Positions 43,819-62,400 of a stretch of DNA of 64,000 nucleotides are shown one piece after another. Origin of the DNA: a virus (taxonomy: Duplodnaviria > Caudoviricetes); the IMG/VR virus record IMGVR_UViG_3300029305_004466. The stretch is one strand, 5' to 3'. Positions within the stretch are counted from its first letter, which is position 1, and each line of letters begins with the position of its first letter. The position numbers and the translations under genes are program-made. The notes under the pieces are model-generated. The model saw only the letters and a list, made by a program, of their open reading frames with translations, did no database searches and had not been told where the DNA came from.

Positions 43819-46800
43819 TTACTCCTCATATACAGTCTTTTCGTCTTCATCAACAGTTTGTGAATCTGCAATTGTATCAGGTGAAACATTGCTTGAACCA
43901 GTTAATAATAATTTTTCTCCTGATAAAATAGGAGCGTAAGGTATTCCTTTGTGTCTCATAGGAAGTAATACTACCATGTTATTGTAACTAAGGAAATCTA
44001 TAATCTTAGTGAGTAATATATCTGCTATTGTACCTACAACAAAACCAACTATAGCAGCGGCTGCGACACCAATTGGTCCACCAACTGCACCTGCTACACC
44101 ACCAGCTTTTGCACCTAATAGTTTAAGACTTTTAAAACCTCGTTTTCCGAGTGAAATTGAATGCTTAACAATTGATTTACCAATTTTTGATATACTATTG
44201 GTTTTGCTTATTGTTTTTTTAATTCCGCTAAAACTCTTTACTGCATATTTAAGATTTTTAAATTCTTTTCCTAAATCTGCCCATTTGATAGCTTTTATAC
44301 CTCCAATAATTTCTTCACTTTTATCAAAGATTTGATACAGCTTTTTACCTGCTGTTCCAACAAGAAGCAATGTATCTATATTTCGTATACTTGTCATTAA
44401 GAATAATGACCAACTAAAAGTATTAAGATAATTAGCAAGTAATTCTACATTATCTTTTATTACTTTTTTAACAGAAGCACGGTAAGCAAAAGCCTCACAT
44501 AACGAAGTCATATTAGCTAAATTGACATTAGCGTTTGAAGCCGCTTCTGTATTAAGTGCTATCATACCCGGAACAACAGTTGTTACAAAACCAGTTCTTG
44601 CACTCAAGGTATGCGTAACAGTTCTTGCGACACATAAGCCAGTAAGTTCATTATATCTATCATTTACATACATATAATCGTCTGGTTCTATACCTGCATC
44701 ACCAAGAAGCATTAAATCGCCCTGATATGCCTTTTGCCAGTTCCACAATAACTGAGTTACACCTACACGGATAGCCGCTTGCTTACCTACATCAAAGCCA
44801 CCGAGCTCCCATAATATATCAGGACCTATCCAGTTTTGTACTATTGAAGAGTCGAATATCTTAGTACTTTGTAATGAGTTACTAACGGTTTTGTCTGAAT
44901 ATATGGTAGGTGATGCTTTTACTGTTTTACCAAGAGTATACATTACAATATTATTTGTGTATACATCTCTTGAAGAAGTTACCATTTGGTTATCTATAAT
45001 TTCTGTTAAACTATCTATGAAGTGACATTGAGCAAATGCTTTAGCTTCTTCATAGATTTCACCATTTATCATATTATATCTGTACTTTGCAAGATACCAC
45101 GGTAAGCCGAAGAATAATCTTGATTCGAATTGATGGTACATTGGCATACCGAGGAATTCTGGGGCATTCATTACAGCCATCTGAATTGCATCCCATGGTG
45201 TCTTATTGTATTTATTAAATACCATGTTCTTTTCGCCATCAAACGTTGGAGCTGCTGGATTATACATTGCTAATGAACCTCTGTAGACTTCTTGACCAAT
45301 TAATCCCCAGTTAGTTCCTGCTCTGTAAATATTTTTATTTAAATCGTATTGTACTTCGTTCCAAGATTTAATTAATCCATCACCGAGTTTTTTACCGCCT
45401 GCTACTATAACTTCTCCAGCAGTAGTGACAAAATTTACAACTCCGTCAACAATTGTTGCTCCGAGCACTACGACTTCTTTTGTTATTGGTATACCATTTT
45501 CTGTATATGTTGTTTCAATAGTTGAACCTTGCACTACACCTGCTAAGTTTGAACTCCAACCACCAAAGAATTCTATTTTTTCACTAAAGTATAAACCAAA
45601 GTGTTCGATACCAAATTTATTTGGCTCACCCCAGTTTTTGCTTACTTTAGCCAGCCATGATTGTCTTGCACTTAATATATCCATACATAAGTTAGAAGAC
45701 TCTTTGTTGGTTGAATCTTTTGGACTATCAGAAGTAATAGAATTGACAAGTTCTACACCATCAGATACACATACAAACTGTACGATGTCACCTAATTGTA
45801 AATCGCTTATATAACCATTCATTACAATTGGGAGTCCCAATGGGTCAGAGCCATAGCCCATACGTAAATGCATACGGCATCCTGCTCTTACAACCATTGA
45901 ATCATAAATGATATTCTTTTGTTCTATTAAAGTTTTAGTAAGCTTTGGACCAATACCCGGAAGCATACCGAACTGGTTATACAATAAAAGTTGGAATTTA
46001 CTATAGCCGTCATCTGTTGATGTAACCAAATTGCCATTATTGTCCATAGTCGGACTGTAATAAAAAGAATTTGGTGGTAATGTATCGAGATTACCATAAG
46101 AATTAGTAACAGTAATAGTGGCTGTGTTTACAGGAGAATCATTATTACTTACTACTTGTATATCAACAAGTGAACGTAACATATAATAATTTGCCCATAA
46201 TTTTTTACCATTTAACCAGTTACCGTCTTCGTCAACAATACTGAAAAGATAAGTAGGGAATGCTTTTATTAAGCGTCCTTTACCGGAGAACTCACATTGG
46301 TTAACAAATGAGCTCATCAATCTTTGAGTATTTGTATTATAGTTATTCCTATATCTTTCTTCTTGATTTTGTAACCCTTTACCTTCTAATATGCCACTTA
46401 CAATTCCGCCATCTTCATCCATTTCTGATGTCTTTATTATTACTGGCTTACCGAATCTTTTAATTTTATCGCTAGTTAATTCTGTAACTCCTGTGCTAGT
46501 TGTTTTAATAACTTCTGTAACAGGTTCTGTTATTGAATTAACGTTATTATTGTCATCTACAAGAATATATTTTTTATCTAAAGATTTAGCAAACTTTTCT
46601 CCCCAGAATATAAAGTCACCTATTGTACCAGCTTCATCGTACACTTTGTCACAAACTGTTCTATCTGAAAAAGGAGAATTTGGACCCATGTAAAATCTCA
46701 ATTGTTTTTCGTATGCTTTTTTGCCATTGCAAAACACATCTTTAACCATTATATGTGCAGAACTATTTGTAGATAATAATTCTTTGCTTGCTCCATTAAA

Positions 46801-49635
46801 AATAACGTTAGCTAAAACTTGATTAATTGTGCCGTATTTCTTAGATGTAAACATGTCGTATATTAACTGAGCTAAAGCTAATTGTATTCTTTGAGAAGTA
46901 GTAGAATTACCCATTTGAATATTAGCTACAACTCTAGCAATAGAGTCTATTTCTGAATTTGTAATGTAAAGATTATCGGAACCATTGATAGTACTAATCT
47001 CGCAAGAAGATGCGGCAACTTTTGTTTCAGGAATAGTTACTTGTTGTTTTATTGGTGCTACATATTCTTTTAATTTTGGAACCTCTAATACTCTTCTATA
47101 TTTGGAATATTTTGCAGATGGGACTGATTCCATACATACTCCATAGGCTTTGCCTTTGGCATGTATAATTTTGTTATCACCTATATATATTGCAATATGC
47201 CCAAAATCTGTTCCTTTTTCATAATTATAAACATGCAATAAATCACCCGGGCTGGCGTGTGCTATTAATTCATCTATCTTCGTAGGGTCGTTAACTGCAT
47301 GTTTTACTCTAAATTTACCTTTTGTAATTAGTGTACCTATTTCCGAAGTTGTCATAGCGTTTCTTTCTTCAAGAGTTAGTACAGTTAATTCATATAATAA
47401 TTGTGCAACTAATCCAGAGCAATCGTATGACCCTTTAGGAAAATCTTTTGATGTTTGTCCATGTCTATAATCCATGCTATAACCTTTTCCTACAGCATTA
47501 AATGCTTTTGCTATAAATTGCTCGCTGAGAGTTTTTACACCTTCGGTTGTTGTCTGTTCATCATAAGCCATTGATTCTACTTCATTACCAATATCAGCTA
47601 TTGTAGTAGTTATCACTGTTGATTGTGGGTCTTTACGATAATGCAAATACTTTTCTTCAATACGGTCTTCTTCTGTTTCTTTCATCATCTTTACTATTGT
47701 TTCAGGATAAAATACATAAAAGTCTGGGTCAACATAACCTTCGTAGATATTATTCTCTAAAATGTCTGCTACGTTAGTTACAAAGCCATTAACATCTACC
47801 TGAAGGTTTGATATAGTTGTTATTCCACGCAACATATGTTGTGGCGTTCTAGGATACTTATCTATTGGATACTCTTCTAATAGAGAACCGTCTTTATAAT
47901 AATGTGTTTGTCTGAATCGTTTTATCTTTTTAATTACTTCATCTACTTCTTTATAGGTAGGAAGTTTTAAATCTGGATAAAGTTCAGTGCTTCTTCTAAT
48001 TTTGTCTTCAACGATAAGGTCTTGTTTTATCTTTTCCTGTAAACCTTTAGGTGATTGAGTAATGGCATTTTTTTCTGTACCTTTAGTACCATTAATATCA
48101 TTGCTTGTAGCTTCAAATGGGTTTACACCAAATATACCTTCACGCTCTTTTTGGTATATATCAAAAGAAATACAGTTTATTTGGCACACAAACAGGTCAG
48201 GAAAATCTGGCACTGTATGTGTTGTGACATTATCAATAACAACAAATTTAGAACCGAATAATTCAGTAAGTTCGGAATCTATTTTAATAAAGCCTAAACT
48301 AGAGCAATCTCTATTGTTCTTTATTAACATATTATTTTGTATACTACACTGCTCTAAAGCATGAATTACACCTTCATCTGTTGTTTCAAGTGTAATATTA
48401 AACATGGTATCCATGCCGCCCATATATTGAACAGTTGGATGCAAATGTTCTGCCATTTGTATATTCGTAATCATGTTAGAATATCCACACTGAAATGAAG
48501 TAATAATTACATTGTCTTCTTCACTATCTAATTGTACGATAAAATTACTTGGATGTTCTTCAGACGGATTTGTTACATGCCACTTCCCGTTTTCGTCTGT
48601 ATATAAAACTTTTTTATCTTGAACTATATCATAGAAACTAAAATCTAATTTTTTTCCTGTGTATTTGTAATTATATTCATCTTTGCTATTTTTTACATAT
48701 TCCTCTTTCACTTGATAATCTATATCGTAATCAATGTCGTCTTGGAAAACGGCTTGATTTAAGATACTAATCTTAAATTTATTTAATGTTTTATCAACAG
48801 GAATAGACTGTAATTTTCCATATTCATGTGTTTCTGTTAATTGTCTTTGATAATAGAATCTAAATAAATCCCAGTCTATAAAATACTTAAACATTCTTGT
48901 ATGTGATTCAAGGTAAGGATATAAATCCACTTCCTGTAATGTAAGATTGGCAATTAACATATCAGGAAAGCCTTCTACTGTACTACAGATAATGGATTGT
49001 AAAGCTACAGTATGAATGTTATAAGTATTATTAATTGTAAAGTTTTCTATAGGAAGGAAAGGAGTACATTTGAATTGAGCCAGTAATTGTCTTAATCCGT
49101 CAACATAATAATATCCTTCTGGTCCTTCAACTCTATATCCGTTAATTTGGTTATAACTATGAAAAACTAATTCGATATTAATAGTTCTTTTGGAGTAACC
49201 AGCTTTTGTTTTCTGAGTATTTTCTTGTCTTAATGTCACCAATTCTTGACTAGTTGACTCGGACATAATAGATATAGCTTGCGGAGGAATAATAAAAGTA
49301 CAGTCACCTAATGTAAGATTGTACATTGTATTAAACATTCTATGTTCGTAATCTATGTAATTTTCCTTAATGATAGGGTCAACTCGTCTAGTTTTGCTAA
49401 CTTTAACGAATTCATCCATCATAGCGGAAGCAGCCTCTTCGTCAATTTTGAGGAAACCTTCTTCATCAAAATACAAATCATCTATAGCTTTTTGTTGTTC
49501 TTCGGCAGCTTGTTGATTTTTATTTGCCTCTGATTCTTCTATAGAGTCTTTAATTTTATTTCCTATCCAATCTCCTATTAATGCTCCGACATAACCAGCA
49601 GAGTCGTTATAATCATTTGGGTTTGGCGTTGGCAT
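43819..49635 (-). CDS. Baseplate hub / tail-associated lysin with NlpC/P60 peptidase (1938 aa)
   Basis: YDCSGLV...GHIAIYIGDNKIIHA; SleB-like segment; RMHLRMGYGS hub-type motif; hydrophobic C-terminus. Confidence 0.8.
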   Translation of the reverse strand: MPTPNPNDYNDSAGYVGALIGDWIGNKIKDSIEESEANKNQQAAEEQQKAIDDLYFDEEGFLKIDEEAASAMMDEFVKVSKTRRVDPIIKENYIDYEHRMFNTMYNLTLGDCTFIIPPQAISIMSESTSQELVTLRQENTQKTKAGYSKRTINIELVFHSYNQINGYRVEGPEGYYYVDGLRQLLAQFKCTPFLPIENFTINNTYNIHTVALQSIICSTVEGFPDMLIANLTLQEVDLYPYLESHTRMFKYFIDWDLFRFYYQRQLTETHEYGKLQSIPVDKTLNKFKISILNQAVFQDDIDYDIDYQVKEEYVKNSKDEYNYKYTGKKLDFSFYDIVQDKKVLYTDENGKWHVTNPSEEHPSNFIVQLDSEEDNVIITSFQCGYSNMITNIQMAEHLHPTVQYMGGMDTMFNITLETTDEGVIHALEQCSIQNNMLIKNNRDCSSLGFIKIDSELTELFGSKFVVIDNVTTHTVPDFPDLFVCQINCISFDIYQKEREGIFGVNPFEATSNDINGTKGTEKNAITQSPKGLQEKIKQDLIVEDKIRRSTELYPDLKLPTYKEVDEVIKKIKRFRQTHYYKDGSLLEEYPIDKYPRTPQHMLRGITTISNLQVDVNGFVTNVADILENNIYEGYVDPDFYVFYPETIVKMMKETEEDRIEEKYLHYRKDPQSTVITTTIADIGNEVESMAYDEQTTTEGVKTLSEQFIAKAFNAVGKGYSMDYRHGQTSKDFPKGSYDCSGLVAQLLYELTVLTLEERNAMTTSEIGTLITKGKFRVKHAVNDPTKIDELIAHASPGDLLHVYNYEKGTDFGHIAIYIGDNKIIHAKGKAYGVCMESVPSAKYSKYRRVLEVPKLKEYVAPIKQQVTIPETKVAASSCEISTINGSDNLYITNSEIDSIARVVANIQMGNSTTSQRIQLALAQLIYDMFTSKKYGTINQVLANVIFNGASKELLSTNSSAHIMVKDVFCNGKKAYEKQLRFYMGPNSPFSDRTVCDKVYDEAGTIGDFIFWGEKFAKSLDKKYILVDDNNNVNSITEPVTEVIKTTSTGVTELTSDKIKRFGKPVIIKTSEMDEDGGIVSGILEGKGLQNQEERYRNNYNTNTQRLMSSFVNQCEFSGKGRLIKAFPTYLFSIVDEDGNWLNGKKLWANYYMLRSLVDIQVVSNNDSPVNTATITVTNSYGNLDTLPPNSFYYSPTMDNNGNLVTSTDDGYSKFQLLLYNQFGMLPGIGPKLTKTLIEQKNIIYDSMVVRAGCRMHLRMGYGSDPLGLPIVMNGYISDLQLGDIVQFVCVSDGVELVNSITSDSPKDSTNKESSNLCMDILSARQSWLAKVSKNWGEPNKFGIEHFGLYFSEKIEFFGGWSSNLAGVVQGSTIETTYTENGIPITKEVVVLGATIVDGVVNFVTTAGEVIVAGGKKLGDGLIKSWNEVQYDLNKNIYRAGTNWGLIGQEVYRGSLAMYNPAAPTFDGEKNMVFNKYNKTPWDAIQMAVMNAPEFLGMPMYHQFESRLFFGLPWYLAKYRYNMINGEIYEEAKAFAQCHFIDSLTEIIDNQMVTSSRDVYTNNIVMYTLGKTVKASPTIYSDKTVSNSLQSTKIFDSSIVQNWIGPDILWELGGFDVGKQAAIRVGVTQLLWNWQKAYQGDLMLLGDAGIEPDDYMYVNDRYNELTGLCVARTVTHTLSARTGFVTTVVPGMIALNTEAASNANVNLANMTSLCEAFAYRASVKKVIKDNVELLANYLNTFSWSLFLMTSIRNIDTLLLVGTAGKKLYQIFDKSEEIIGGIKAIKWADLGKEFKNLKYAVKSFSGIKKTISKTNSISKIGKSIVKHSISLGKRGFKSLKLLGAKAGGVAGAVGGPIGVAAAAIVGFVVGTIADILLTKIIDFLSYNNMVVLLPMRHKGIPYAPILSGEKLLLTGSSNVSPDTIADSQTVDEDEKTVYEE

Positions 49636-49684: not shown

Positions 49685-52600
49685 TTATACTAATTCTGAA
49701 AATTTTCTTTCAAGCCAGTTATTACTTACTTGACTTCTATCATCTTGAATATTGATATTAGTATCTCCGTTTGTTTGACTGGATAACTGTCTAGCAACAT
49801 TCATTTGGTTTATAATATCTTTAGATTTAGCAGACATTTTAAATTGCGTTCCACTAGTAGGGTCTGTGTATACTACCTTTTTGCCAGTTGAAGCTGGGGC
49901 TCTTAAAGTGTCATTATTGATTGGACCAGATGCTTCTTTTTGTTCAAGTTCTGGCGATAAAGGTGAACTACCTCCAGTTAGCATTTCATTTGCAAGACCG
50001 AGTGCTGCAAGTCCCATTAAGACTTTACCCGGTTTGGTTTTGATAAAATCTTTGGCAAAGTTTTTAGCATCACCTAAGGTCTTATTTATCATGCCGCCTG
50101 CTTTTTTAACAGCTTCTTTCTTACCTTTGGCATTCATGCCTTCTTCGGTAGCTTTAGTGCCTTCTTCCACAATTTTTTCATTTATCTGCTTTGTTAAATT
50201 CATTATATCTTTTTCTCTTGCACCTTGCAAGCCATTGTTATCATTAGGGGAATAATCTTTAAGGTATTCTCTAAGTTTAGATTTAGTTTGTTCAACAGCG
50301 TATTTATCAAAAGCATCAGCGTCATCAGGAGTTATATAATCCATAACTTCTTTTACGTCTTCACTAGATAAATCCGAAAAGCTTCTACCAAACAAACTAT
50401 TACATGTGTTAAAACCAACACGCATATCATCAGAACCATCCCAACCGAAAACTTTATCTATATCACTAGTGGTAGTAAATTTCATACCTCTTTGTAATGA
50501 TTTGATATAAGCTTCATTTTCGCTTCTGTATAATCCAAGAGTTTTTTCGGCATTATTATTTCCGTCTAAGTCTAATCCTGCTTTTCGTAAGTCTATTATT
50601 CTTTCATCGTAGCCATCAAATATAGAACTATCTAAGGCTTTTTTATTTGCTAAGTATTCTCTGTATTCATCGGTATCGCCATTTAATCTTCCCAATCCTA
50701 CAGTATTAGCTACTTGTTTAATTCTTTCACTAAAGATATCAGATGTTGAAGTTTTTTTACCTTTGCTTCTTTCAATAATATCTCTATTGATTTCCGCAAG
50801 CATATTGTTTATATAAGTTCTATCTTTAAATGCTTGTCTGCCAGCTTCACTTTGATACATAGCATTATCTCTGATGAATTCCATTTGATTAATGAATTCT
50901 TCAAAGTCACTATCAGACACCATATTTAAGTATTTATTGATGCTTCTGCTGGTTTGTTTTCCTAAAGTACTAGTGGCATCAGAATAATCATATGCTTCAT
51001 CACCTCTAATGTATTTAGTTGCAAACTTACTAGTTCTTTGTGCGACCACTCTTCCAGATACATCTTTTTTAAATCTAGTCATGTCGGACATACTAGCAAT
51101 ACTCATTGCTTCATAGTCTCCGAATTTTTCTTGTAGTATAGATTGCATTTGAGCATTTGAACTTGCTTTTATTGTATGTTTTCTTCCCCATACAGGAGCT
51201 CCATTTTTGGTAGTACCTGTACTCAAGTTAAAGGTTTCAAAGCTTACCGAATACTCTCCACCTTTTCTTCTTAAATCATTTGTCTGTTTATAGAGTACAA
51301 TATCTCCATCTTCATCACTAATATATATTTGGTCACGTTTTAATTCTTGCAGAGTGTCATTATGGTAATACCCCATATTGAAAGCTAAATCTAAATCCCT
51401 TAATGCATCATCAACTGCTCGTCTTGCTGTAGTAGTTACATAGCCGTCTGCATCGAATTCTGCAAATTTTGCTACCATATCTTCTACAAAACTAACTGCA
51501 CCTTCGGTACTATCTGATGTAAGAAGACTACTTCTTAATTTTAATTTATCCCAGAACTTTCTGAATACTGATAAATTTGCGGCTTTACCGAGCACTTCCA
51601 TATATTCTTCTACTGGAACTTCTCCGCTATATTTTATATGACCAACGGATTCTTGTACTGCTTTTAAACCTTGTTGAGTATGCTTTCCGCCTTTAAATAC
51701 ATCATTCATACCAGATGTAAATAAATCAGCTCTGAATATTTCTTCAGCACTTTTAATATGCTTAACACTAATAAAGCTTTGCTCTGTTTCTGGCATAAAT
51801 CCTGTTTTATTAACATGCATTGCTCTTTTTATATCTTGCAATTCGTACAATAAATCTTTATCACCTTTTTCAAGTGCATAATTTATAGATTCCTCTAAAG
51901 CTCTATTAAATCTGTATACAGTATTACTTACTGTACCGATATTAGGTTTTGTGGCTCTTACTTTGGTAGCTGCGTTAATAACATCTTCATTTTTTAACAT
52001 GTTACCATGTTTTTTCTCCCAAGCATTATATAATTGTTCAACAACTTCATCGTCCATATCTGACACATCGTATCCAATGAATTCGTCAAGACCAATTTCA
52101 GTAAGTAATTCATTTCTTTTGTTTTTTGACAAATACCCATCTACCATAGCAGCTTTATATTGCAATGTTTCCCCGATTGCATCTGCTGTTCTTAAATAAT
52201 TTCCGTCACTTGTAGTACCTCGTTTTTCCATTTTGCTTACAGTGTCTTCTATTAAATCATGCATTTCCTTATTTGACTTAGAGGCGTATACTGTGCCATC
52301 TCTATCTATAAATTCTGTGAACACTTGTTGTTCATAGTTTTTACTAAGAGCACTATAAAATTTCCTATCTCTTTTGTTTACCACAAGACCGTTTTTATCA
52401 AGATAAGCTTTTACAACTAAGTTATCGCCGTCAAAGTCACCAGCTTCTCTGTCAATTAATGTTGGTGTTACTCTTATGTCATCTCTCTTAAGAAATCTAT
52501 TGTATCTTAAGATGACATCATTAACAGTACCTTCGTTATTGGTAGGGTATCTTGCCGACTTTGCAAATGTTCCGACTGTAGCAAAATAATCTTTTGCCAA

Positions 52601-55600
52601 TACGTCAAAACTATCACTAATAGCATCTCTTTCCTTTGCTAAAGCTTCGAACATTCCAGCGATTTGACTTGATTTAATTTTTTGTCCTGTTAAGGTTTCA
52701 AATATGCTAATAAAGCTTTGTTTGGATTTTTTATCTCCAACACCTCTATTAAGTATACTGTTTACTTGATTAAACAATTTTTCACTCTCTAAAGCTTTTC
52801 GATAATATCGTATTTTATTGCTATCAATAATAGCTCTAGCATAATCTTCATCAAAGAAGCCGTGTTCCATCTCTTTGATGAGAGGTCTATAGTTTTCCAT
52901 ATTAAAGAACAAGTCTTTACCTGTTTTTCGGAAATCTATACCGAGCTTTTTGAAGCCCTCTTCACCCATTTCAACTATATCATCATAGTATAATTTTCCG
53001 TTTCTTATGGTAGTATATCTACCATCTAAATCTATATTGTTGCTTACTATATTACCATTTTTATCGTATTCAACAAAACCTGATGCAATTTCACTTAATA
53101 TTTGTTGTCTATAAGTGTCACTGGTTGCCGAAGCCCATTCTTTATAATTACTGCTCATTCCAGAAACTACAGGCATTACAGATGCTTCAGCATGACCATA
53201 TAATGAGTTTTTCATTGATATCTTCAGCGTTCTCTGATATGCAAATGATGTTTTATCTTCTGTATTTAAATCATTTGCAAAAGCTCTATACATTTTCTGT
53301 ATTTTTTCATTAAGGTCTTTTTCGCTTTGTTCAATACCCTTATTCCTGCCGTATGTTTTGAGTTCATTTATAACATCATTAATGATTCTAGGTGTTTTTG
53401 TATACTGAGCTTCGCCTTCAAAAGGAGTAATATCATATAATGGGATAAGAAGTTGTTTTACCTTTTTAGAAACAACCTTTCCATTTTTCTTATCCGAGAA
53501 ATTACTAAAGGAAATACCATCTGGTAATGCAACTCTTAATACTGATATATCGTCAATATTCTTTCCTTGTTGTCTAGCTAAGGCTCTTAATTGGTCACTA
53601 TATTGTGTTCCTTTTCCATCAACTACTTTAAATATGCCAACTTTCATTAATTCATCAGCATCGCTTCCAGCTGGAATTAAATTTATTTGGTCTAATTTTA
53701 AATCAAGTATAATATTTGCGTTTGCTAATTTTTCTGGGGAGCCCATATATTCTGCGGCAGCTATTATACCTTCATTTGTCTTTTTAGCACTTGCAAATCT
53801 TTTACCGCCAACGGTGCTTGCATCAGTTGCCTCATCCCATATTCTTTTGTTAACATATTGTGAAGTAGACATATAGCGTCCATTAACTTCAATAGCATTT
53901 AAGTTTTCGAAGTCACTGAGGTCTGCGTTATATTCATCAATATCTTCTAAGAATTTTGTACCAGCTGATAACTCTACCCTTGGGTCTATTTTCATTTCGC
54001 CACCCATGGATTCGTTATTTACGCCTCGTGTAACACCTATTCTTGCAATACCGCTTCTTTCTGATTCTGCAATATCGTTTGTTATTCTAGACCATAATGC
54101 TTGGAAAGGACCTTCTTTTTCTGCTCTTTTAGCGATTTCACTAACAACACTCATTATTTGAGTTCTTGCTCCACCCTTTCCAAGAGCAGATTCATCGTAA
54201 AAGAATCTGCCTTCATCATAGATAATTTTCATACCATTAGAGTCGGCATTATGGAACATTCTTGTTATTTGTCCAGCTAATTCTTTTCCTTTAGCTTTGC
54301 CACCTTTTACTTTATATAAATCTTCTATTTCATTTTGAACAGCATTGAAGATTCTATTCATGTAATTTCCATAAGTTATACTACCAGTACCATGCTTTAT
54401 TAAGGACATGTCTGTACCAATAGCTACGCCTTTACCAAGTATTTCATCGTATACAGCATCCGAAATTACTCTGAATACGTCTTTTGCTTCTGATTGGCTG
54501 ATGCCTGTTTGATTAAGCAGATATCTAAATCTATCAAAAGAAGTAGAAGTATCGAATTCAGACATTGCCATTGTCATCTTTTCGTTATACATGAATAACT
54601 TAACAGATTCTGTACCCTGTCTATCTTCTATTAAGTGAGCTTTGCCAGTAGTAAAGAAGTTATCAAGTTCATTTATATCAATAGTACCAGTTGGACCACT
54701 ATAAGTGATATTTCTTTCATCACCTAATCTGAAAGTCATACCTGATTCAATATGCCCTGAGGCGAATAAATCTGCGTATCTTCTTCTTAAAACAGCAAGG
54801 TCTTCTTTGCCTACGGCATTAATTTTTGCAGTAACTAAGTTAGGACTATTAAATAATGAAAGGTCAAGTAAAGTATCTCTACCAAATGCTCTTGATTCAT
54901 ATGTATTAGCCTTCATCTTAGCAACGTTAAATACTTCTCGAATTAATTGTTTACTAACAGATTCGTCATGTATCTGGAATTTTCCAGTCTTAAGTGTATT
55001 CTGATATAATTCTCTAAAGATATTATCAAAATTATTTTCACTTTCAATATCTTGAATTTTTGCAAGTAATTCTGTAGGTGATATTTGTTTAACATTTAAA
55101 GTAACTCCTGTTTCTAAGTCACCATAATTGATACCATCATATACCTTATAATCACTTAACGCTGCTCTACGTTGTTGTTCTTGAATTGGCATAATATCAT
55201 AACCAAATCTCATTTGCAGTTTCTTTGCTGTTTCTTCACTTATTTCTCTTTTAGCGTCAGCAACAATATAATGTTGAGAACCGCCTACCTGATTACCAGT
55301 AGGACGAATATTTGTATCAGTAGAAGCGAATTGGTTAAACATAAAAACATCATTTAATCCTATACGCTTCTTATCATATACTGCTTTTTCTTTTAATAAC
55401 TGAGATATATTTTCTCTATTGTTTGCGATAAAGTTTATTGATTGCATAGTACGCTTTGGTAATTCGTATCTTTTAGCAACGTCTTGAAGATAATCAAGAA
55501 TTGTAAAATTAGCCTTATTAGCAAAACTACCTTGTTCAGCACTCATTGGAGTATTCATTAAATGCTTATAGAAAAACTCATCAAATGCTATACTTACACT

Positions 55601-58600
55601 CTGTCCTTCTCGTGCTTTTTTAAGCATGGAATCTAATGCTACTACTGTGTCATTTGTTTGTATACCAGAAAGACTTGCCAATGCTCTAACGCCTTCAAGT
55701 CTGTCATTTTTAGCTATAGTGCCAGCAACATTTAAGTTTTTCTGAGCATTAAGATAATCAGCTTTGGCAGCTTCAAGCGTTAATATTTCAAGTGGCTGTA
55801 TAGCAACTTGTGATGACAGGTAAGTATCAGACACTGATGGTGCTAAAACTTTTTTCCATCCATCTGCTGTCGGTAATGCCTGATAACCAACTGGACCCGG
55901 AGCATCTGTTAATATTCCATTAAGTGCAGTTGAGTATAAACGTGTCATACTAGCATAAGTTTCTTTTGCATTAGAAGGGTCTGTTGTTACATCTATTATG
56001 CCCTGTCTTATACGTCTCCAGACTGAACTTATATCGCTTGCTGAATCTGTAAGATATATATCTAAATTTTCAAGACCAGTATCATCTTCATAGTAGTTTC
56101 CCAGACTGAACTGAGAAACTTTCTGGAAGCCTCTATCACCTACACTTATTGTGTTCATGGAATGATTAGCTTTTTGACCATTAATATCTGTATAGGTCAT
56201 TGAATCTGTTGCGTTATAAGTATCACCATTGGTTATTATTTCATCTCTATGTATTGCAGGTAATTTAAATACAGCAGAGTAATTATTCTCCTGTATTAAA
56301 TCTATTTTTTGTTGGAAAGAAAGTTCATCTGATGCCATGGTTTCCATGGTTTTCGCAAGACCAGTTTCATTACCAGTATTAAGATTTACCAAGATAAAAG
56401 CATCTTCACCCTTTTTACCAGAATAAGCAAACTGAGTAATAAATCTGGTTTTACCATCTGTTTTTATTTGAGTAAGACCAAATGGTTCTCCTTTTTTGGT
56501 TGTACTCTGGAAGAATGTTCTTTCCATTGATTCAACAGCAGCGTCTGTATAGCTAAGGTCATTTTTTAATATTCTGGAAATTTCATTTTTATCCATTGTA
56601 ATTCTCATGTTTTGTGCATTAGAAACAATACTTTGGATACCATCTTCAAAAGACCTAGCACCACGAAGTCTATCAGAAAACATTTCCCCAGCAGTGTAAT
56701 CTACAAAATCTCCATCATCCATTTGCACTGTATATTTTGAGGTTCTAGCTTTACGCAAAGAAAGACCGCCAGTTAACTGTTCATTAGTCTTTCTTTGCAT
56801 GAAATTATACAAATGTCCTGTTCCCTCTAAACTAGTTATTCCACTTTCAACATAATCTCCATATGTCATCATCTTTTTGATAGGTCTTACATATGAATCT
56901 TGAATGTGAGTAACAAATGATTCAACAAGCTGGTATTTTTTTATTTCATCAACAGTGGCTACAGAAAACTTACTTATTGCATTAGCCATTGCTTCCTGTT
57001 GGTCTTCTGGCAATGCATCTCTCATTTCATTAAGCATGTTTCTAAATACTTTGCTTTTAACACCAGCAGCCTGATTAAGGTCAGCCATTGAGAATGCACT
57101 AATAGAAGTATCAATAACGCCTCTACTATATAAATCATTTATGGCTGAGAACATAGCTTCAACGCCATCTACTTCATTACTTCTTTTTGTTTGTCTTAAT
57201 ATAGCTTGTATTGCTTGTCCTCTATGCTCAAAATTGATATGAGTTGCACCATTGCCAAAGTCCATTTCTATATTGAACATATCTCTTTTTGATGCATTAG
57301 CGTAATCCATAAAAATATTAGAAGCATAATCTTCATAATTAGTATTACCTAAAGCACCAAAAACACTATCTCTTATTCCACCTGCAATCAAAGTCTTTTG
57401 ATGGTTGCTAAGGTCTTTACCTTCTACTTGTTCTTCGATATATTCTAAAATTTCAGCTTCATCTTGTATTTTACCAAATACATTTCTGAAATCTCTTAAC
57501 ATACTTGGAGCGATATTTTTGCCTTCTTCGATTCCTAAATCTTTTTCAAGAATAGGAATAATTGTATCATCATACTGTCCTTCGGCAATATCTCTAATAA
57601 CATTTTCATCTATACTTATTCCTTCAGAAGTAAATGCTGATACGGTATCTTTATATGCTCTATAATATTGATTAAGTCTATCATATCCACCAATATAGGC
57701 TTGTTTATCTGTATCATATTCAAGGTTCTGAGGACTAAATAAACTTTCATAATTTCTTCTGGCTTTGTCGGCATCTACTATAGCTTCATTAATATCTAAG
57801 TATTCAAGCCTTTTGCCCATATCACTAGCTTTATCGGCAAGAAAAGTATTGCTTATCATTTGTTCTGCTTCTACAGAACTACCAAATGTTTTAATGAATC
57901 TATCTTGACTCCCTCTTGCAGCGGATAAAAATTCGACAGCAATACGTCCATCTTCATAACTTCTTACATCGTTGATTTTATAATATCTACCACGCTGTAT
58001 ACCGTAATTATGAAACTTAGTGTGCTTACCTCTTGAAGAAAAATAATCTGAACCATTTTTATCAACGGCAATGGATTCCAATGCATAGAAAACATTCTGG
58101 TCAAGCATTGCTTTGATTCTGCCCGGGTTTGTTAATTGATTAGCTTCGCCAACAGCTTTTTCCCAAGCCATCATTTCTGGTAAACTAACACCTTTATAGA
58201 AATCTTCAAGTGCTACCAATGCATTAGTAACTTCTGTATCACTGGCAGCATTATGTGCATTAATACTAATACCAAATGCTTGAGCAAGTCCTTCAAGAGA
58301 ACCTCTTCGGCTTATACCTGTATGTGTTAAGCCACTGTTAATTGCAATATTTTTAGCTAAGCTAATTTCACTATTTCTTGTTGCATATTTGATACCAGAA
58401 AGTAAATCTAATACATTATTTTTGCCTAATGCATTAGCATTTTCATTTAATACTTTAGCATTAATATTATCTTTATCTACCTTGAAAGCGGCTCTATATA
58501 CAGGAATATCAAATGCGTTACTATTAAAGCCTAAAATAAAAGTATTTTCTGTTCTGGATGCATCTGCAAAATATCCTGAAATTCTTCCTCTTAAAGTGTC

Positions 58601-59461
58601 ACCTTTTTTAGTTGTTACAGCAGTATCTAATGTTTGAACCTTAAAACCTTTAGAGACAAACTCTTTTTGTTTTCTTTTATATGCGTCTAAATCTATAAAT
58701 TCAAAACCTGCATCACCTAATATAGTTCCATAATCTTCTGCTGATATTCCGCCAAGTATTGCAAGATTAGTAAGACCATCAGAAACTGCTTGCCGACTAA
58801 AGCCATTGGAATCGGCAAGCTGTTTAACAGTTACAAGTTTATTTTTGGAGATTCCTGAAATGCTAGACATTTGAAATACATCATCAAAAGACCCTGCGTA
58901 TCTTGAAAGTCTTTCTAAGTCACTTTCAAGCCCAGTTCTATTTTTATAATCAAGGTTAAGGGCGTTAATTCCGCCCCCCTTGAAAACAGGATATATTTGT
59001 TTAGCAAGTCTTTCAAATTGTCCTTTATTAATACCGAGAGCAATAGAATGAGAGCCAACAACTTTCGGACCGCCTTTTCTCAAAAGGGTTTCTGTAAAGC
59101 CTATTTCTGTGATATTACCGTCATACGCATGTGCATTACGCATTCCTATTGTTTCAAAGTCAAGAGCGAGAAGTCTTGTTTCAAGTCCTTCGCTACGAGT
59201 TTTTAAAACAGATTCATGTAATGCTCTCCATTGTTTTTGCTGAACTGAAAAATCGTAGTCATAATCGCCGTATACACTTTTATCGACAAAGACACTTTCA
59301 GCTATACTTTCAGCACTGTCGAATACCGATAAATTGCCCAGCATATGTTCACTATAATCAGTTTCACCTGTATAAGGATGAACATATGGAGTGTCCATTT
59401 GGGTATAAGCCAATTTAGTATTACTCCAGTTTTTTCTTTGTATGTCTGCGAAATAAGGCAT
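49685..59461 (-). CDS. Giant protein: N-terminal DEDDh exonuclease plus single-chain DPBB RNA polymerase, probable virion RNAP (3258 aa)
   Basis: LDFETIG / GFNSNAFDIP / HNAASD; ARYPT...IRVTPTLIDREAGDFDGDN (DFDGD at 52424-52438). Confidence 0.8.
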   Translation of the reverse strand: MPYFADIQRKNWSNTKLAYTQMDTPYVHPYTGETDYSEHMLGNLSVFDSAESIAESVFVDKSVYGDYDYDFSVQQKQWRALHESVLKTRSEGLETRLLALDFETIGMRNAHAYDGNITEIGFTETLLRKGGPKVVGSHSIALGINKGQFERLAKQIYPVFKGGGINALNLDYKNRTGLESDLERLSRYAGSFDDVFQMSSISGISKNKLVTVKQLADSNGFSRQAVSDGLTNLAILGGISAEDYGTILGDAGFEFIDLDAYKRKQKEFVSKGFKVQTLDTAVTTKKGDTLRGRISGYFADASRTENTFILGFNSNAFDIPVYRAAFKVDKDNINAKVLNENANALGKNNVLDLLSGIKYATRNSEISLAKNIAINSGLTHTGISRRGSLEGLAQAFGISINAHNAASDTEVTNALVALEDFYKGVSLPEMMAWEKAVGEANQLTNPGRIKAMLDQNVFYALESIAVDKNGSDYFSSRGKHTKFHNYGIQRGRYYKINDVRSYEDGRIAVEFLSAARGSQDRFIKTFGSSVEAEQMISNTFLADKASDMGKRLEYLDINEAIVDADKARRNYESLFSPQNLEYDTDKQAYIGGYDRLNQYYRAYKDTVSAFTSEGISIDENVIRDIAEGQYDDTIIPILEKDLGIEEGKNIAPSMLRDFRNVFGKIQDEAEILEYIEEQVEGKDLSNHQKTLIAGGIRDSVFGALGNTNYEDYASNIFMDYANASKRDMFNIEMDFGNGATHINFEHRGQAIQAILRQTKRSNEVDGVEAMFSAINDLYSRGVIDTSISAFSMADLNQAAGVKSKVFRNMLNEMRDALPEDQQEAMANAISKFSVATVDEIKKYQLVESFVTHIQDSYVRPIKKMMTYGDYVESGITSLEGTGHLYNFMQRKTNEQLTGGLSLRKARTSKYTVQMDDGDFVDYTAGEMFSDRLRGARSFEDGIQSIVSNAQNMRITMDKNEISRILKNDLSYTDAAVESMERTFFQSTTKKGEPFGLTQIKTDGKTRFITQFAYSGKKGEDAFILVNLNTGNETGLAKTMETMASDELSFQQKIDLIQENNYSAVFKLPAIHRDEIITNGDTYNATDSMTYTDINGQKANHSMNTISVGDRGFQKVSQFSLGNYYEDDTGLENLDIYLTDSASDISSVWRRIRQGIIDVTTDPSNAKETYASMTRLYSTALNGILTDAPGPVGYQALPTADGWKKVLAPSVSDTYLSSQVAIQPLEILTLEAAKADYLNAQKNLNVAGTIAKNDRLEGVRALASLSGIQTNDTVVALDSMLKKAREGQSVSIAFDEFFYKHLMNTPMSAEQGSFANKANFTILDYLQDVAKRYELPKRTMQSINFIANNRENISQLLKEKAVYDKKRIGLNDVFMFNQFASTDTNIRPTGNQVGGSQHYIVADAKREISEETAKKLQMRFGYDIMPIQEQQRRAALSDYKVYDGINYGDLETGVTLNVKQISPTELLAKIQDIESENNFDNIFRELYQNTLKTGKFQIHDESVSKQLIREVFNVAKMKANTYESRAFGRDTLLDLSLFNSPNLVTAKINAVGKEDLAVLRRRYADLFASGHIESGMTFRLGDERNITYSGPTGTIDINELDNFFTTGKAHLIEDRQGTESVKLFMYNEKMTMAMSEFDTSTSFDRFRYLLNQTGISQSEAKDVFRVISDAVYDEILGKGVAIGTDMSLIKHGTGSITYGNYMNRIFNAVQNEIEDLYKVKGGKAKGKELAGQITRMFHNADSNGMKIIYDEGRFFYDESALGKGGARTQIMSVVSEIAKRAEKEGPFQALWSRITNDIAESERSGIARIGVTRGVNNESMGGEMKIDPRVELSAGTKFLEDIDEYNADLSDFENLNAIEVNGRYMSTSQYVNKRIWDEATDASTVGGKRFASAKKTNEGIIAAAEYMGSPEKLANANIILDLKLDQINLIPAGSDADELMKVGIFKVVDGKGTQYSDQLRALARQQGKNIDDISVLRVALPDGISFSNFSDKKNGKVVSKKVKQLLIPLYDITPFEGEAQYTKTPRIINDVINELKTYGRNKGIEQSEKDLNEKIQKMYRAFANDLNTEDKTSFAYQRTLKISMKNSLYGHAEASVMPVVSGMSSNYKEWASATSDTYRQQILSEIASGFVEYDKNGNIVSNNIDLDGRYTTIRNGKLYYDDIVEMGEEGFKKLGIDFRKTGKDLFFNMENYRPLIKEMEHGFFDEDYARAIIDSNKIRYYRKALESEKLFNQVNSILNRGVGDKKSKQSFISIFETLTGQKIKSSQIAGMFEALAKERDAISDSFDVLAKDYFATVGTFAKSARYPTNNEGTVNDVILRYNRFLKRDDIRVTPTLIDREAGDFDGDNLVVKAYLDKNGLVVNKRDRKFYSALSKNYEQQVFTEFIDRDGTVYASKSNKEMHDLIEDTVSKMEKRGTTSDGNYLRTADAIGETLQYKAAMVDGYLSKNKRNELLTEIGLDEFIGYDVSDMDDEVVEQLYNAWEKKHGNMLKNEDVINAATKVRATKPNIGTVSNTVYRFNRALEESINYALEKGDKDLLYELQDIKRAMHVNKTGFMPETEQSFISVKHIKSAEEIFRADLFTSGMNDVFKGGKHTQQGLKAVQESVGHIKYSGEVPVEEYMEVLGKAANLSVFRKFWDKLKLRSSLLTSDSTEGAVSFVEDMVAKFAEFDADGYVTTTARRAVDDALRDLDLAFNMGYYHNDTLQELKRDQIYISDEDGDIVLYKQTNDLRRKGGEYSVSFETFNLSTGTTKNGAPVWGRKHTIKASSNAQMQSILQEKFGDYEAMSIASMSDMTRFKKDVSGRVVAQRTSKFATKYIRGDEAYDYSDATSTLGKQTSRSINKYLNMVSDSDFEEFINQMEFIRDNAMYQSEAGRQAFKDRTYINNMLAEINRDIIERSKGKKTSTSDIFSERIKQVANTVGLGRLNGDTDEYREYLANKKALDSSIFDGYDERIIDLRKAGLDLDGNNNAEKTLGLYRSENEAYIKSLQRGMKFTTTSDIDKVFGWDGSDDMRVGFNTCNSLFGRSFSDLSSEDVKEVMDYITPDDADAFDKYAVEQTKSKLREYLKDYSPNDNNGLQGAREKDIMNLTKQINEKIVEEGTKATEEGMNAKGKKEAVKKAGGMINKTLGDAKNFAKDFIKTKPGKVLMGLAALGLANEMLTGGSSPLSPELEQKEASGPINNDTLRAPASTGKKVVYTDPTSGTQFKMSAKSKDIINQMNVARQLSSQTNGDTNINIQDDRSQVSNNWLERKFSELV

Positions 59462-59474
59462 TACAGTTTCCCCC

Positions 59475-62400
59475 TTAATAATTCAAATTGTAAATAGCGG
59501 ATTCTATTTCATCTCTGCTATCTTGATATATATTCAATGTATTTTTATTACCTCTGGCATTATCATATGCCATTACAGTTACATCGTGATACCCCGTCCT
59601 ACCAAGGATAGCTTGTAATTTTAATTGTACCACACCCCTAGAGTTTTGTGAATGGATTTTAGGAACTGGAATATTAACTTGATTAGCTGCTTCTATCTGG
59701 TCATCCCATAAATCAAATTCGCCCATATCCAGTTTGTTGTTGTGTACTAATTTTACTTTTACGTTTTCTAAATCAACATCTTCATCCCAACCTATCCAGT
59801 TTGAATCTGGTAAGCCGTGAGTCTGGAAGTACTCTTGAAGTGTAGGTTTTTCATCTACTTTCATTCCCCATGCCTGTTGTAAACCTCTCTTAAGATAGTC
59901 AGGGGCAATTCTAAGAATTTCGTCTTTCTCTTCTTCAGGTGCATCGACAAAGTATTTAAAGTATTGCCTTTCTTTCTTAGGAAGAGCCTTCATAAGGTTA
60001 TTTAATGGGTCTTCCGGTTCATATCCATACATGGTTTGGTCTGCTTGTTGTTTATAACTTATAGCTTTTATTACATTTTCAGGCAAACGCTGTATTTCAC
60101 GGTCTGATTGTATTCTCTTAAGTTCTTGATTTACTGTTCTTATAATGCTTTTTGAATCAGCATTTATATCAAGACCTTCAGGAGCTCCGTATTTAAAGTT
60201 AAATTGTTTTCTATGTTTGTAATCTAATTTAACCGTTTTCTTGAATGCTTCTAATTCTCGGGTTCTATTTTTATTATATATACCTTGTATTTGTTTTTCA
60301 TTAACCATACTATCAATATTTATATGGTCTTCTTTAAGGGCTTTCTTTTTGTACTTTTCATATAATCCCATATTCTTTACATATTTTAATGTATCAAAAT
60401 ACTCGTTTAATTCAGCTTGTTTTTCTCTTCTTTCTGGTATCCAATCACTTTCTCTGTCTTTCTGTGTGTAAGCATAAGTACCACCGAATAAACCAATAGC
60501 ACCGCCTACGAAACCAGATGTTAATCTACCGTATTTAGAATTACCAAATAACGAGCCTAAGAAACCACCTAATACTGTTGCAGTAACTATTCCTTCTGGA
60601 CCTGTGTTACCATGTCTGATAACTTTATCTATCATCTCAGGACCCAGATAATCTTTAATAGGGTTATTCCAAGATTGGAAGTCTTTGCCGTATACTTCTC
60701 TATCTCTATATTGTTCATATGGAGATTTTACTTGGAAGAACTTATTACCTACGAAAGGAATTTGCCCTACAGCGTGTGTGATTCTTTCCATAGCTGAGCC
60801 AACTGCTATTTCATTTTTAGTATATTTTGCATGGATAGCAGCTGGACCATCATCTTCTTTTTCTTTTGCTAAACCTTTATTAAGCATTGTTTGGTTAACA
60901 TTTCTACCATCAGAATAAACAACTGCTTGAATAGATTTAGTTGAATCAGAACCGTATTTATTAGCATCATCTGCATCATATGCAATGGTAATTGATTTAC
61001 CTCGTCTAATATGTTTCCTGAGTTCTTTAGCGGCTGCGTCATTCATTGTAGTTCTCTTATTATACATTTCGCTATTAGACTCGCTAACACGTATTCCTGC
61101 TAATTTAACAGCATGGTCAGTGCCATATCTATTAACTAAAATAGTATTGTTGTCTATTACTTTCTTAACTCTTACTCTTTCGGATTGCAGGTTACTTGTT
61201 TTGAACTTATATGGATATACTCTTAAAGGTTCTTTTTGCTTTTGTAGTCTTTCGTTTATCTGAGAGATTTCAGCACGTTCTTCTGGTGTGAGCCCCGGGT
61301 CGTTAGCAAGTCTTGCTTTAATAGCTTGGAACTCATCTGAATAAGGGGCTACGTCTGCCAATATTCTGTATCTGTCGATATTAGAATATAATTCACCTCT
61401 ACCTATTGTGCCGTTTTGAACCCCTTGGTATATTTCATTTCTTGCCTGATTTAAAGTATTCAGGTTTTGTTCTAATAAGTTTTTATCATATTTAAAACCT
61501 GTTGTGTAAGTTTGGTCTGGATTATCTCTGTTAATATAATAGATATAACCGTTTGACCGTTTATTGCCAGTTGCCCATAAATAGTAATTAACCTGTGACT
61601 GATGTTCGAAATCTGCGTGTCCTTGTTGCATTATTCTATAAAACTTATCTTCGCCAACAGACTTAATATCAACAATTGCTTTACCAGTTCTTGATGAAGG
61701 GTCATGAATCATAGCATCATAAAAACCAAGAATGTTATTGATATTGTCTTTAAATTGAACTTCAGTGTTTATAGCAAGCCCTGCTTCCATCCAAGCTTTT
61801 TCTACTTGCTCATGAATTCTGTTACCTTTTTCGGTAACTTCCATTCCGAATGAGTCTATACTATCTTGATTCAATAAATGTTTTTGAATATCTTCTTTGG
61901 CTTTTCCGATATAGCTAGAACCTATTCCAAGGTCAAACATTTGTCTGGAATTTATACCGTATAATCTCTCATAGCCTTCGCCCGGAAGTCGTTCTTCACC
62001 ATTATCTATTTTTGAATATGGGTCGCCATGCTTAAAATCAGTGAAATAATTACGTCCCGGCATCCATGATGGCATGGTATTTCTTATAGGATTTATATAT
62101 TCTGTATTCGTGTTTCGTTTTTGTACGAAACGTCTGAAGATTTCTGATGCATCTCCGCCAAAACCACCAAGGTTTTCATCCCAGAAAGATTTGTTAAATG
62201 AGTATGCATAATTGGAATCTTCTATTACTCTTGCATCTTTGTTAGCTTGCCCAGTAATAAATGCTTGTGTTTCAAAACCTCTCATACCGAAGAAATCTGA
62301 TACGGTATTAAACTCTTCTCCGATATTATACATGAAGGAGTTATTTATTGGCTCACTATTGTAATCTGCTAACTGAGGTGCAAATCTGTTAGGGTCATTT

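Follow-up and report, generated by a model that had tools for sequence, protein, structure and literature searches.

What occupies the tape-measure slot of a contractile-tailed phage when the gene found there encodes a protein of 3258 residues that matches no entry of Pfam (searched to E 0.1) or PHROG? This question is raised by a gene lying in the stretch of viral DNA analysed here (64,000 nucleotides, referred to as the window). The protein, P0001, was called in identical copy on 21 metagenome contigs, the longest of about 210.3 kb, and its source is an uncultured, 0305phi8-36-like phage of about 210 kb with a contractile tail. The answer for which we argue, with a rough probability of 0.7, is that P0001 is a giant multi-domain virion protein of the tape-measure slot, containing exonuclease-like, two-barrel RNA polymerase (RNAP) and gp146-like modules. 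The genes concerned are the following:

59475..64000, minus strand: upstream giant gene, 1996 aa in full and cut by the window end, counterpart of 0305phi8-36 gp145
49685..59461, minus strand: whole gene of P0001, 3258 aa, a tail-module giant encoded in the tape-measure slot
43819..49635, minus strand: downstream gene for a 1938-aa baseplate hub / cell-wall hydrolase, homologous to 0305phi8-36 gp147

The preliminary description had proposed, from motifs recognised by eye, that a single-chain two-barrel RNAP is hidden in P0001. The strings on which it relied are all present, namely ARYPT (aa 2303-2307) and GDFDGD (aa 2341-2346, window nt 52441-52424), with NTYES (1519), VKLFMYNEKM (1620), MGGEMKIDPRVE (1819) and RTLKISMKNS (2077) upstream, and NIGTVSN (2507) and EQSFISVKH (2560) downstream. 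In an alignment of 15 sequences sharing 20-77% identity with P0001, in which the columns of aa 1501-2700 were scored, 34 columns are invariant, and 18 of these fall inside the eight motifs, which cover 64 residues and would be expected to contain 1.8 (hypergeometric P about 1e-15), so that the overlap is more than chance would give and the presumed beta/beta' landmarks coincide with columns invariant in the family. The motif residues concerned are K1621, E1627, K1628, G1820, R1828, S2086, R2304 and P2306, followed by D2342, D2344, D2346, G2509, S2512, E2560, Q2561, I2564, K2567 and H2568. Conservation in homologues had been set as a test of the proposal, and RxP...DxDxD, as well as EQ..I..KH, is kept in all 19 full-length family members found (20-77% identity); a pattern search matched K...EK in 18 of the 19. 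Within the 64-kb window, a compact [RK]xP-x(20-100)-DxDxD that is conserved in homologues occurs only in the P0001 ORF. Along the chain, an exonuclease-like domain is followed by ~1000 residues of unknown fold, the RNAP core and a C-terminal module; the core and its parts are:

51542..54919, minus strand: predicted two-barrel (double-psi beta-barrel) RNA polymerase core, aa ~1515-2640
54578..54601, minus strand: K1621-x5-E1627-K1628 of the beta-like barrel (DPBB-B), with its two conserved lysines, invariant in 15 sequences
53978..54013, minus strand: ESMGG...R motif, E1817-R1828, with G1820 and R1828 invariant and E1817 nearly so
53204..53215, minus strand: MKNS, aa 2083-2086, start of DPBB-A, with S2086 invariant and N2085 nearly so
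52424..52552, minus strand: DPBB-A catalytic segment R2304-Y-P2306 ... D2342-F-D2344-G-D2346, putative metal-binding loop, marked by its invariance
51866..52006, minus strand: long helix, aa ~2492-2532, after GN...K...K..IG..SN (model helix H992-1032, 41 residues)
51758..51787, minus strand: TEQ..I..KH, putative trigger-loop-like element, with E2560, Q2561, I2564, K2567 and H2568 invariant

No significant sequence match of P0001 to any RNAP family was found and no Pfam RNAP domain reached threshold; PF05183 (the YonO/QDE-1 RdRP family) matched neither P0001 nor any of the 15 family members. The only marginal sequence-profile match of the RNAP region, obtained against PDB sequences, aligns the catalytic segment to the phiKZ nvRNAP gp55 (RNPT...NADFDGD, E 0.018), and hhalign aligns the same segment to P23-45 gp96 (FRNPV...VDFDGD). 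The fold predicted from the 15 sequences resembles solved RNAPs, which rank over unrelated folds, and RNAPs were returned first by three independent structure libraries searched with this model; the proposed single-chain two-barrel enzyme is thus backed both by fold prediction and by structure searches. Structural alignments with QDE-1, P74 gp62 and gp96 begin at model residue 18-20, an Atlas cluster with PF00562 and PF00623 aligns over model 14-919, and for the largest subunits of cellular RNAPs the alignment spans ~350 residues between model 404 and ~1166. The best BFVD matches are pieces of giant phage proteins, one of them named 'Minor tail protein' (E 7e-10) and another from Acinetobacter phage ME3 (E 1.7e-6, probability 1.0). 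The preliminary description compared P0001 with YonO and phi14:2 gp66 and overlooked the tape-measure slot, which makes P23-45 gp96, not named there, the closest known system; P0001 falls outside PF05183, and gp66 is only a weak BFVD match (E 0.048).

The predicted model also places the individual elements. The K1621/K1628 motif lies on two neighbouring strands (E117-124 and E127-134), and ESMGG...R had been likened by eye to GGQRFGEME of beta. The DPBB-A barrel is interrupted by a ~200-aa insertion; stand-alone DPBB domains (CDC48-N and the designed DPBB 7dww) align to model 585..853, that is aa 2085-2353, and a strand-strand-strand-helix-loop-strand pattern surrounds RxP and DxDxD. The 41-residue helix, around which G2486, N2487, K2500, G2509 and S2512 are invariant, and then TEQ..I..KH follow DPBB-A in the order expected of the bridge helix and trigger loop, with Rpb1 alignments reaching model ~1166; judging from its position, the helix is probably the bridge helix. 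The modelling supports a very diverged single-chain two-barrel RNA polymerase core of cellular type at aa ~1515-2640. One could object that this region has lost its catalytic function and is left as a structural remnant, or that motif spotting and structure prediction have created a false resemblance, considering the lack of a significant match to any RNAP family and a folding alignment of only 15 sequences. We regard this as very improbable, given that the residues one would expect to serve catalysis are all invariant where pairwise identity is 20% and that RNAPs come first in three independent libraries.

The second enzymatic part of P0001 lies near its N-terminus:

58202..59194, minus strand: DEDDh (DnaQ-like) 3'-5' exonuclease-like domain, aa ~90-420, recognised from invariant Exo residues, AF2 and Foldseek

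The Exo I DxE, Exo II Nx4D and Exo III Hx4D signatures are all present, the residues invariant in 14 sequences being D101, E103 and T104 (Exo I), N313 and D318 (Exo II), and H403 and D408 (Exo III), and a ~190-aa insertion separates Exo I from Exo II. The AF2 model of this domain has a pLDDT of 83, and in Foldseek it is matched best by E. coli exonuclease I, RNase T and TREX1 (probability 0.92-1.0, E only 1e-3 to 1e-2). Profile searches against PDB sequences gave weak matches, mostly DEDD exonuclease domains, and PF13482 RNase_H_2 was matched by two of the 15 family members at 3e-4. It is conceivable, if rather doubtful, that exonuclease and polymerase cooperate on one injected chain, in transcript proofreading or processing, in the degradation of host nucleic acids, or in DNA or primer synthesis with proofreading. 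We know of no exonuclease paired with a characterised two-barrel polymerase outside archaeal PolD, the nuclease of which is Mre11-like and unrelated to DEDDh.

The exonuclease also bears on the chemistry of the polymerase, as it is replicative DNA polymerases, and not RNAPs, that typically carry a DEDDh domain on their own chain, and the structures best matched by the RNAP-region model include QDE-1 and plant RDR2. P0001 might then be a QDE-1-like RNA-dependent RNA polymerase or a primase, or might perform PolD-like DNA synthesis with a DEDDh proofreader, and two-barrel enzymes such as PolD can indeed make DNA (PMC10770324). We hold such activities to be distinctly unlikely, considering that more than 1100 residues lie between exonuclease and polymerase, that YonO, gp66, gp96 and gp64, the phage enzymes of two-barrel type characterised to date, make RNA on DNA templates and that, as weak evidence, no PolD chain occurs among the structural matches listed. 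Moreover, R2304 of RxP is invariant, and its beta' counterpart in cellular RNAPs makes contact with the ribose 2'-OH of the NTP that enters. We infer that P0001 is catalytically active and synthesises RNA on a DNA template.

Where such an enzyme would act is suggested by its genomic surroundings. The gene order (sheath, tube, tube paralogue, two paralogous chaperone-like genes, the 1996-aa giant, P0001 and the hub) matches ORF139-147 of 0305phi8-36, and the tail sheath gene upstream of P0001 supports the earlier assignment to a myovirus. P0001 thus occupies the tape-measure slot, between tail chaperones and baseplate genes, together with one other giant gene. The 1996-aa product of this gene contains a Cas4-like PD-(D/E)XK domain and an SNase-like domain, and its C-terminus resembles that of gp145; the 1938-aa hub matches phrog_20474 (E 8e-250), carries an NlpC/P60 domain and is 28% identical to ORF147 by tblastn (E 8e-68). 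The slot between the gp145-like giant and the hub is kept in distant relatives, and in a 213-kb IMG/VR record (G001, CheckV 100%) a family member is again one of three giants in this arrangement. Bacillus, Moorella and also Acinetobacter are hosts of relatives, and a Firmicute host of the source phage is plausible. P0001 itself ends in a module found in a known virion protein:

49688..50062, minus strand: C-terminal ~125 aa, a glycine-rich hydrophobic stretch and then ...DDRSQVSNNWLERKFSELV, common to 0305phi8-36 gp146

By hhalign this module aligns with the gp146 C-terminus over 121 columns (probability 85%, E 5.7e-6), its NWLE.KF motif is present in all P0001 family members, and it is probably an anchor in the tail or baseplate. 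From the tail-module position and this gp146-homologous C-terminus, we infer that P0001 is present in the virion. It could instead be an active polymerase that is not a tape-measure or tail-lumen protein, either a head-packaged ejection protein as in N4 and crAss-like phages or a non-virion enzyme, with the 1996-aa protein as the true tape measure. It is the 1996-aa gene, and not that of P0001, that directly follows and overlaps the chaperone-like genes; P0001 is mostly predicted to be globular instead of an extended helix, and it showed neither a Pfam peptidase, such as a metallopeptidase, nor a hydrophobic segment passing a Kyte-Doolittle screen for a transmembrane segment; and the assignment of gp146 as tape measure comes mainly from tail length (PMC2147016). 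However, P0001 has its C-terminal module in common with gp146 (2537 aa), which mass spectrometry detected in virions (PMC2147016), the slot is retained in distant relatives, and the P23-45 tape measure also includes a folded RNAP (PMC10770324); we thus find this alternative unlikely.

The placement of P0001 in the tape-measure slot, together with its gp146-homologous C-terminus, makes P23-45 gp96 its closest known analogue. This tape-measure-fused virion two-barrel RNAP (779-DFDGD-783; PDB 8H2M/8H2N) reads the earliest phage genes independently of the RNA polymerase of the host (Chaban et al. 2024, PMC10770324), and RNAPs of the same type are found in the Thermus phages P74-26, G20c and TSP4. 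By hhalign, P0001 has no detectable sequence homology with gp96 beyond RxP...DFDGD. The RNAP is central in P0001 (aa ~1515-2640 of 3258) and N-terminal in gp96, ahead of a long tape-measure region that contains metallopeptidase and membrane domains, neither of which was found in P0001, whereas a DEDDh exonuclease fold is found at the P0001 N-terminus. A clamp-like region may be present in P0001, while gp96 is clamp-less; the P0001 phage has a contractile tail and a second giant protein in the slot, and P23-45 a siphovirus tail. As for gp146, named 'hypothetical tape measure protein', it takes the place corresponding to that of P0001 in a syntenic tail module, with gp145 on one side and the gp147 hub on the other, and the C-terminal ~120 aa of the two proteins are homologous, but gp146 lacks the DxDxD motif, the remainder of the two is not alignable, and the RNAP profile has no match anywhere in the 0305phi8-36 genome. 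In Acinetobacter phage vB_AbaM_ME3, the same slot of the same type of tail module holds ME3_36 (1603 aa, annotated hypothetical), with REP...DHDQD at aa 1217; it has half the length of P0001, lacks the NWLE.KF C-terminus and shows no similarity to P0001 by hhalign. Judging from size only, the BFVD model from ME3 (an uncharacterised protein, second fragment, 802 aa) would be ME3_36, and no description of it as an RNAP was found in the literature searched. Unlike P0001, QDE-1, YonO, 0305phi8-36 gp99 (PF05183) and phi14:2 gp66 are not encoded in a tail module. Cellular beta/beta' and the split RNAPs of phiKZ/AR9 have catalytic architecture and signature motifs in common with P0001, in which, differently from them, both barrels are on one chain within a 3258-aa virion-module protein.

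Since a giant protein of the tape-measure slot contains both an RNAP and an exonuclease domain, the phage is likely to inject a transcription enzyme of its own. P0001 would be built into the tail through its C-terminal module, would exit the virion together with the DNA or before it and would, as P23-45 gp96 does, transcribe the earliest phage genes with no need of the host RNA polymerase; it may also have a role in measuring tail length. In the active enzyme, the beta-like barrel would contribute K1621/K1628, and the beta'-like barrel R2304 and Mg-binding D2342/D2344/D2346, with bridge-helix-like and trigger-loop-like elements after them. For later genes, other enzymes would take over: the 64-kb window encodes a sigma-like factor, and the related genome G001 also encodes a PF05183 (YonO/QDE-1-type) RNAP, in this lineage a separate gene.

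To our knowledge, the virion RNA polymerases known before 2024 were all head-packaged (N4, phiKZ-like and crAss-like phages), and an injected RNAP of the tape-measure slot has so far been shown only for Thermus phage P23-45, that is, in a single small siphovirus group. The P0001 locus would carry the same idea in a sequence-unrelated family of an ancient, 0305phi8-36-like lineage of large contractile-tailed phages, which suggests that RNAP delivery via the tail slot recurs among phages and is not an isolated oddity. One may then ask how a contractile tail lets through a folded enzyme exceeding 130 kDa, and the exonuclease partner of this RNAP would be unprecedented. In Acinetobacter phage ME3, with ME3_36, the wider lineage has a cultured representative. 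The P0001 locus would also account for some of the 'dark' giant tail proteins that jumbo phages encode, and single-chain RNAPs as diverged as those of the P0001 family would give new sequence material to engineering and to research on how RNAPs evolved.

The window has a GC content of 32% and carries nearly all of its genes on the minus strand. The giant protein P0001 had been proposed, from the stretch 51700-55350 (P0001 aa ~1371-2587), to hide a single-chain two-barrel RNA polymerase (RNAP), and all of the motif strings named in that proposal, ARYPT, GDFDGD and the six others, were found in it. The gene, these two motifs and invariant residues are as follows:

49685..59461, minus strand: P0001, 3258 aa
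P0001 aa 2303-2307: ARYPT
P0001 aa 2341-2346 (nt 52441-52424, minus strand): GDFDGD
Invariant: K1621, E1627, K1628
Invariant: G1820, R1828
Invariant: S2086
Invariant: R2304, P2306
Invariant: D2342, D2344, D2346
Invariant: G2509, S2512
Invariant: E2560, Q2561, I2564, K2567, H2568

Pfam and PHROGs assigned no family to the whole of P0001, Pfam searches of 15 family members gave stray matches only besides RNase_H_2 in two of them, a tblastn search of 50,697 phage records with aa 1300-2700 matched nothing, and a phmmer search of PDB sequences with all of P0001 returned no relevant match. The family is small and has no cultured member: when 1.84 billion representatives were scanned exhaustively with HMMER, only 13 relatives came up, nearly all of 3000-3400 aa, and a few more came from word-based searches and from IMG/VR. 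An alignment of 15 sequences, which share 20-77% identity with P0001, has 34 invariant columns within aa 1501-2700, and the eight motifs hold 18 of them, those listed above, where 1.8 would be expected (P about 1e-15). RxP...DxDxD is kept in 19/19 full-length members, with the variants DFDGD, DHDGD, DHDAD, DFDAD, DNDGD and DLDGD, as is EQ..I..KH. The motif observation is therefore real, and the motifs are under strong selection. Next to this conservation, the idea that the polymerase module is a dead remnant or an artefact appears most improbable.

An AF2 model of P0001 aa 1501-2700, computed with the 15-sequence alignment, reached a pLDDT of 75.2 and a pTM of 0.72. The AlphaFold/Foldseek comparison that the preliminary description had suggested as a check returned RNA polymerases for all of the best 50 PDB matches (best E 8.4e-4), including E. 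coli beta', AR9 nvRNAP, QDE-1, P23-45 gp64 and P74 gp62. The nearest ESM Atlas cluster, aligned over model residues 14-919, consists of viral proteins in which PF00562 (beta barrel) and PF00623 (beta' barrel) occur together, and in BFVD the model matched the second fragment (802 aa) of an uncharacterised protein of Acinetobacter phage ME3 (E 1.7e-6); further strong BFVD matches likewise come from fragments of giant phage proteins, and one bears the name 'Minor tail protein'. The fold scores are moderate for a predicted model of 1200 residues, and the weight lies in the motifs and in the identity of the proteins that head three independent libraries. PolD, YonO and N4-type single-subunit RNAPs are absent among the structural matches listed, which we do not count against a relationship. 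By sequence profile, the catalytic segment was the sole part to align, to phiKZ nvRNAP gp55 (E 0.018) and to gp96, the tape-measure-fused virion RNAP of Thermus phage P23-45.

From the model we conclude that P0001 aa ~1515-2640 form a single-chain two-barrel polymerase core, ordered beta-like and then beta'-like; the original proposal thus gains support from RNAPs topping three structure libraries and from the invariance of the motifs. An insertion of ~200 aa is predicted to split the beta'-like barrel between MKNS (2083-2086) and RYPT (2304). Judging by their order, the long helix at aa 2492-2532 is the probable bridge helix, and the trigger loop probably begins at TEQ..I..KH. Cell-wall-degrading DPBB domains of the RlpA/MltA type occur in some tape measures, and DFDGD was also considered as part of such a domain. 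This reading was rejected: the two barrels, the RxP motif, the pair of lysines and the helices further downstream all fit RNAPs, which fill the top ranks.

The N-terminal part of P0001 carries a predicted exonuclease domain:

P0001 aa ~90-420: Exo I (D101, E103), Exo II (N313, D318) and Exo III (H403, D408), all invariant

A long insertion separates Exo I from Exo II. Structural matches to the AF2 model of this domain (pLDDT 83) include exonuclease I, RNase T and TREX1, and a profile search against PDB sequences gave weak matches, most of them to DEDD exonuclease domains. To our knowledge, no two-barrel RNAP characterised so far has a DEDD exonuclease domain. It may serve in RNA 3' trimming or in proofreading, or it may attack host nucleic acid. 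That the polymerase has another chemistry or template, possibly working together with this exonuclease, we consider quite improbable. Searching ESM Atlas with aa 480-1500 and aa 2650-3258 yielded nothing usable, and a Kyte-Doolittle screen of P0001 found no transmembrane-like segment.

P0001 lies in a tail module; features of the module and of the window are as follows (L007 is a contig carrying a P0001-type module):

43819..49635, minus strand: baseplate hub, 1938 aa, homologue of 0305phi8-36 gp147 with an NlpC/P60 peptidase domain; strongly hydrophobic C-terminal segments at aa ~1382-1413 and 1844-1891
59475-64000, minus strand: upstream 1996-aa giant, cut by the window end (full gene L007:8281-14271), counterpart of 0305phi8-36 gp145
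L007:7074-8321: a pair of neighbouring chaperone-like genes (177 and 234 aa), each with matches to both phrog_29362 and phrog_29368
L007:3462-6640: PG_binding_1 in the tube paralogue (588 aa) and in a 190-aa neighbour, unusual for tail-tube-region proteins
6181-8946, minus strand: DnaB-like helicase and primase directly adjoining virion structural genes, where the structural block ends on its low-coordinate side

In contigs with an identical P0001, the upstream order is tail sheath, tube, tube paralogue, two paralogous chaperone-like genes and then the 1996-aa giant, the start of which shares 41 nt with the second chaperone-like gene. Gene order around P0001 is that of ORF139-147 in Bacillus phage 0305phi8-36, and the three-giant arrangement is retained in distant IMG/VR relatives and in ME3. 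The 1996-aa giant matches a Cas4-like PD-(D/E)XK nuclease (phrog_1706, E 4e-12), an SNase-like domain (PF00565, E 1.5e-4) and, weakly, a glycine zipper; both giants of the tape-measure slot thus carry nucleic-acid enzymes.

The position of P0001 is occupied in 0305phi8-36 by ORF146, a virion protein by mass spectrometry that was called the tape measure from tail length, and whose conservation with its nearest relatives is limited to the last ~60 residues (PMC2147016). In hhalign, only the C-terminal 121 columns of the P0001 family align with gp146, to whose C-terminus they are homologous (probability 85%, E 5.7e-6), and a terminal NWLE.KF motif is present in all family members. There is no DxDxD in gp146, and the whole 0305phi8-36 genome gave no match to the RNAP profile of the family; a jumbo-phage survey gives a YonO-like enzyme as the only RNAP of the 0305phi8-36 group. 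It is unlikely, in our view, that P0001 is an active polymerase but neither a tail-lumen nor a tape-measure protein.

A sharper nearest analogue than those of the preliminary description is gp96, a 5002-aa tape measure whose N-terminal ~1100 aa are a two-barrel virion RNAP with the catalytic motif 779-DFDGD-783, and which transcribes pre-early genes, including that of a second, non-virion RNAP (Chaban et al., 2024, PMC10770324). In the literature searched, tape measures were linked to two-barrel RNAPs nowhere else. P0001 resembles gp96 in position and fold but falls outside its sequence family, hhalign of the P0001 family against gp96 1-1200 being confined to the catalytic loop. Unlike in P23-45, the tail is of the contractile type, and the polymerase sits in the middle of the chain instead of at the N-terminus; the slot is shared with a second giant protein, and P0001 lacks the peptidase and membrane domains that gp96 has. 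P0001 may also differ in having a clamp-like region, since the alignment of Rpb1-type subunits begins at model residue ~404.

Two further transcription proteins were found, one of them in the related complete genome G001 (213 kb):

L012 (IMG/VR G001:C1:122985-126959): separate PF05183 (YonO/QDE-1-type) RNAP, 1257 aa, ADFDGD
1487..2626, minus strand, in the window: sigma-like protein, 379 aa, whose C-terminal part matches the phage sigma factors phrog_3512 and phrog_351 (E 1e-5)

G001 encodes both a P0001 family member and the PF05183 enzyme, in parallel with the two-polymerase scheme of P23-45; each genome of the lineage would thus carry two two-barrel RNAPs that are unrelated to each other. 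Many homologues of the PF05183 enzyme, on ~200-kb contigs, also have an N-terminal Rho_N (PF07498). The sigma-like gene suggests that host RNAP is used too, and hints at its redirection for some gene classes.

We favour, with a probability of about 0.7, P0001 being a tail-built enzyme that is ejected at infection for host-independent first transcription; we infer its activity, packaging and timing. It would be built into the tail via its C-terminal module. In ME3, the same slot holds a protein annotated as hypothetical, which is probably the one modelled in BFVD:

L009 (Acinetobacter phage vB_AbaM_ME3):33172-37983: ME3_36, 1603 aa, with REP...DHDQD at aa 1217

Nothing aligned between the P0001 family and ME3_36 in hhalign. 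ME3_36, from a cultured jumbo phage, is a testable analogue of P0001.
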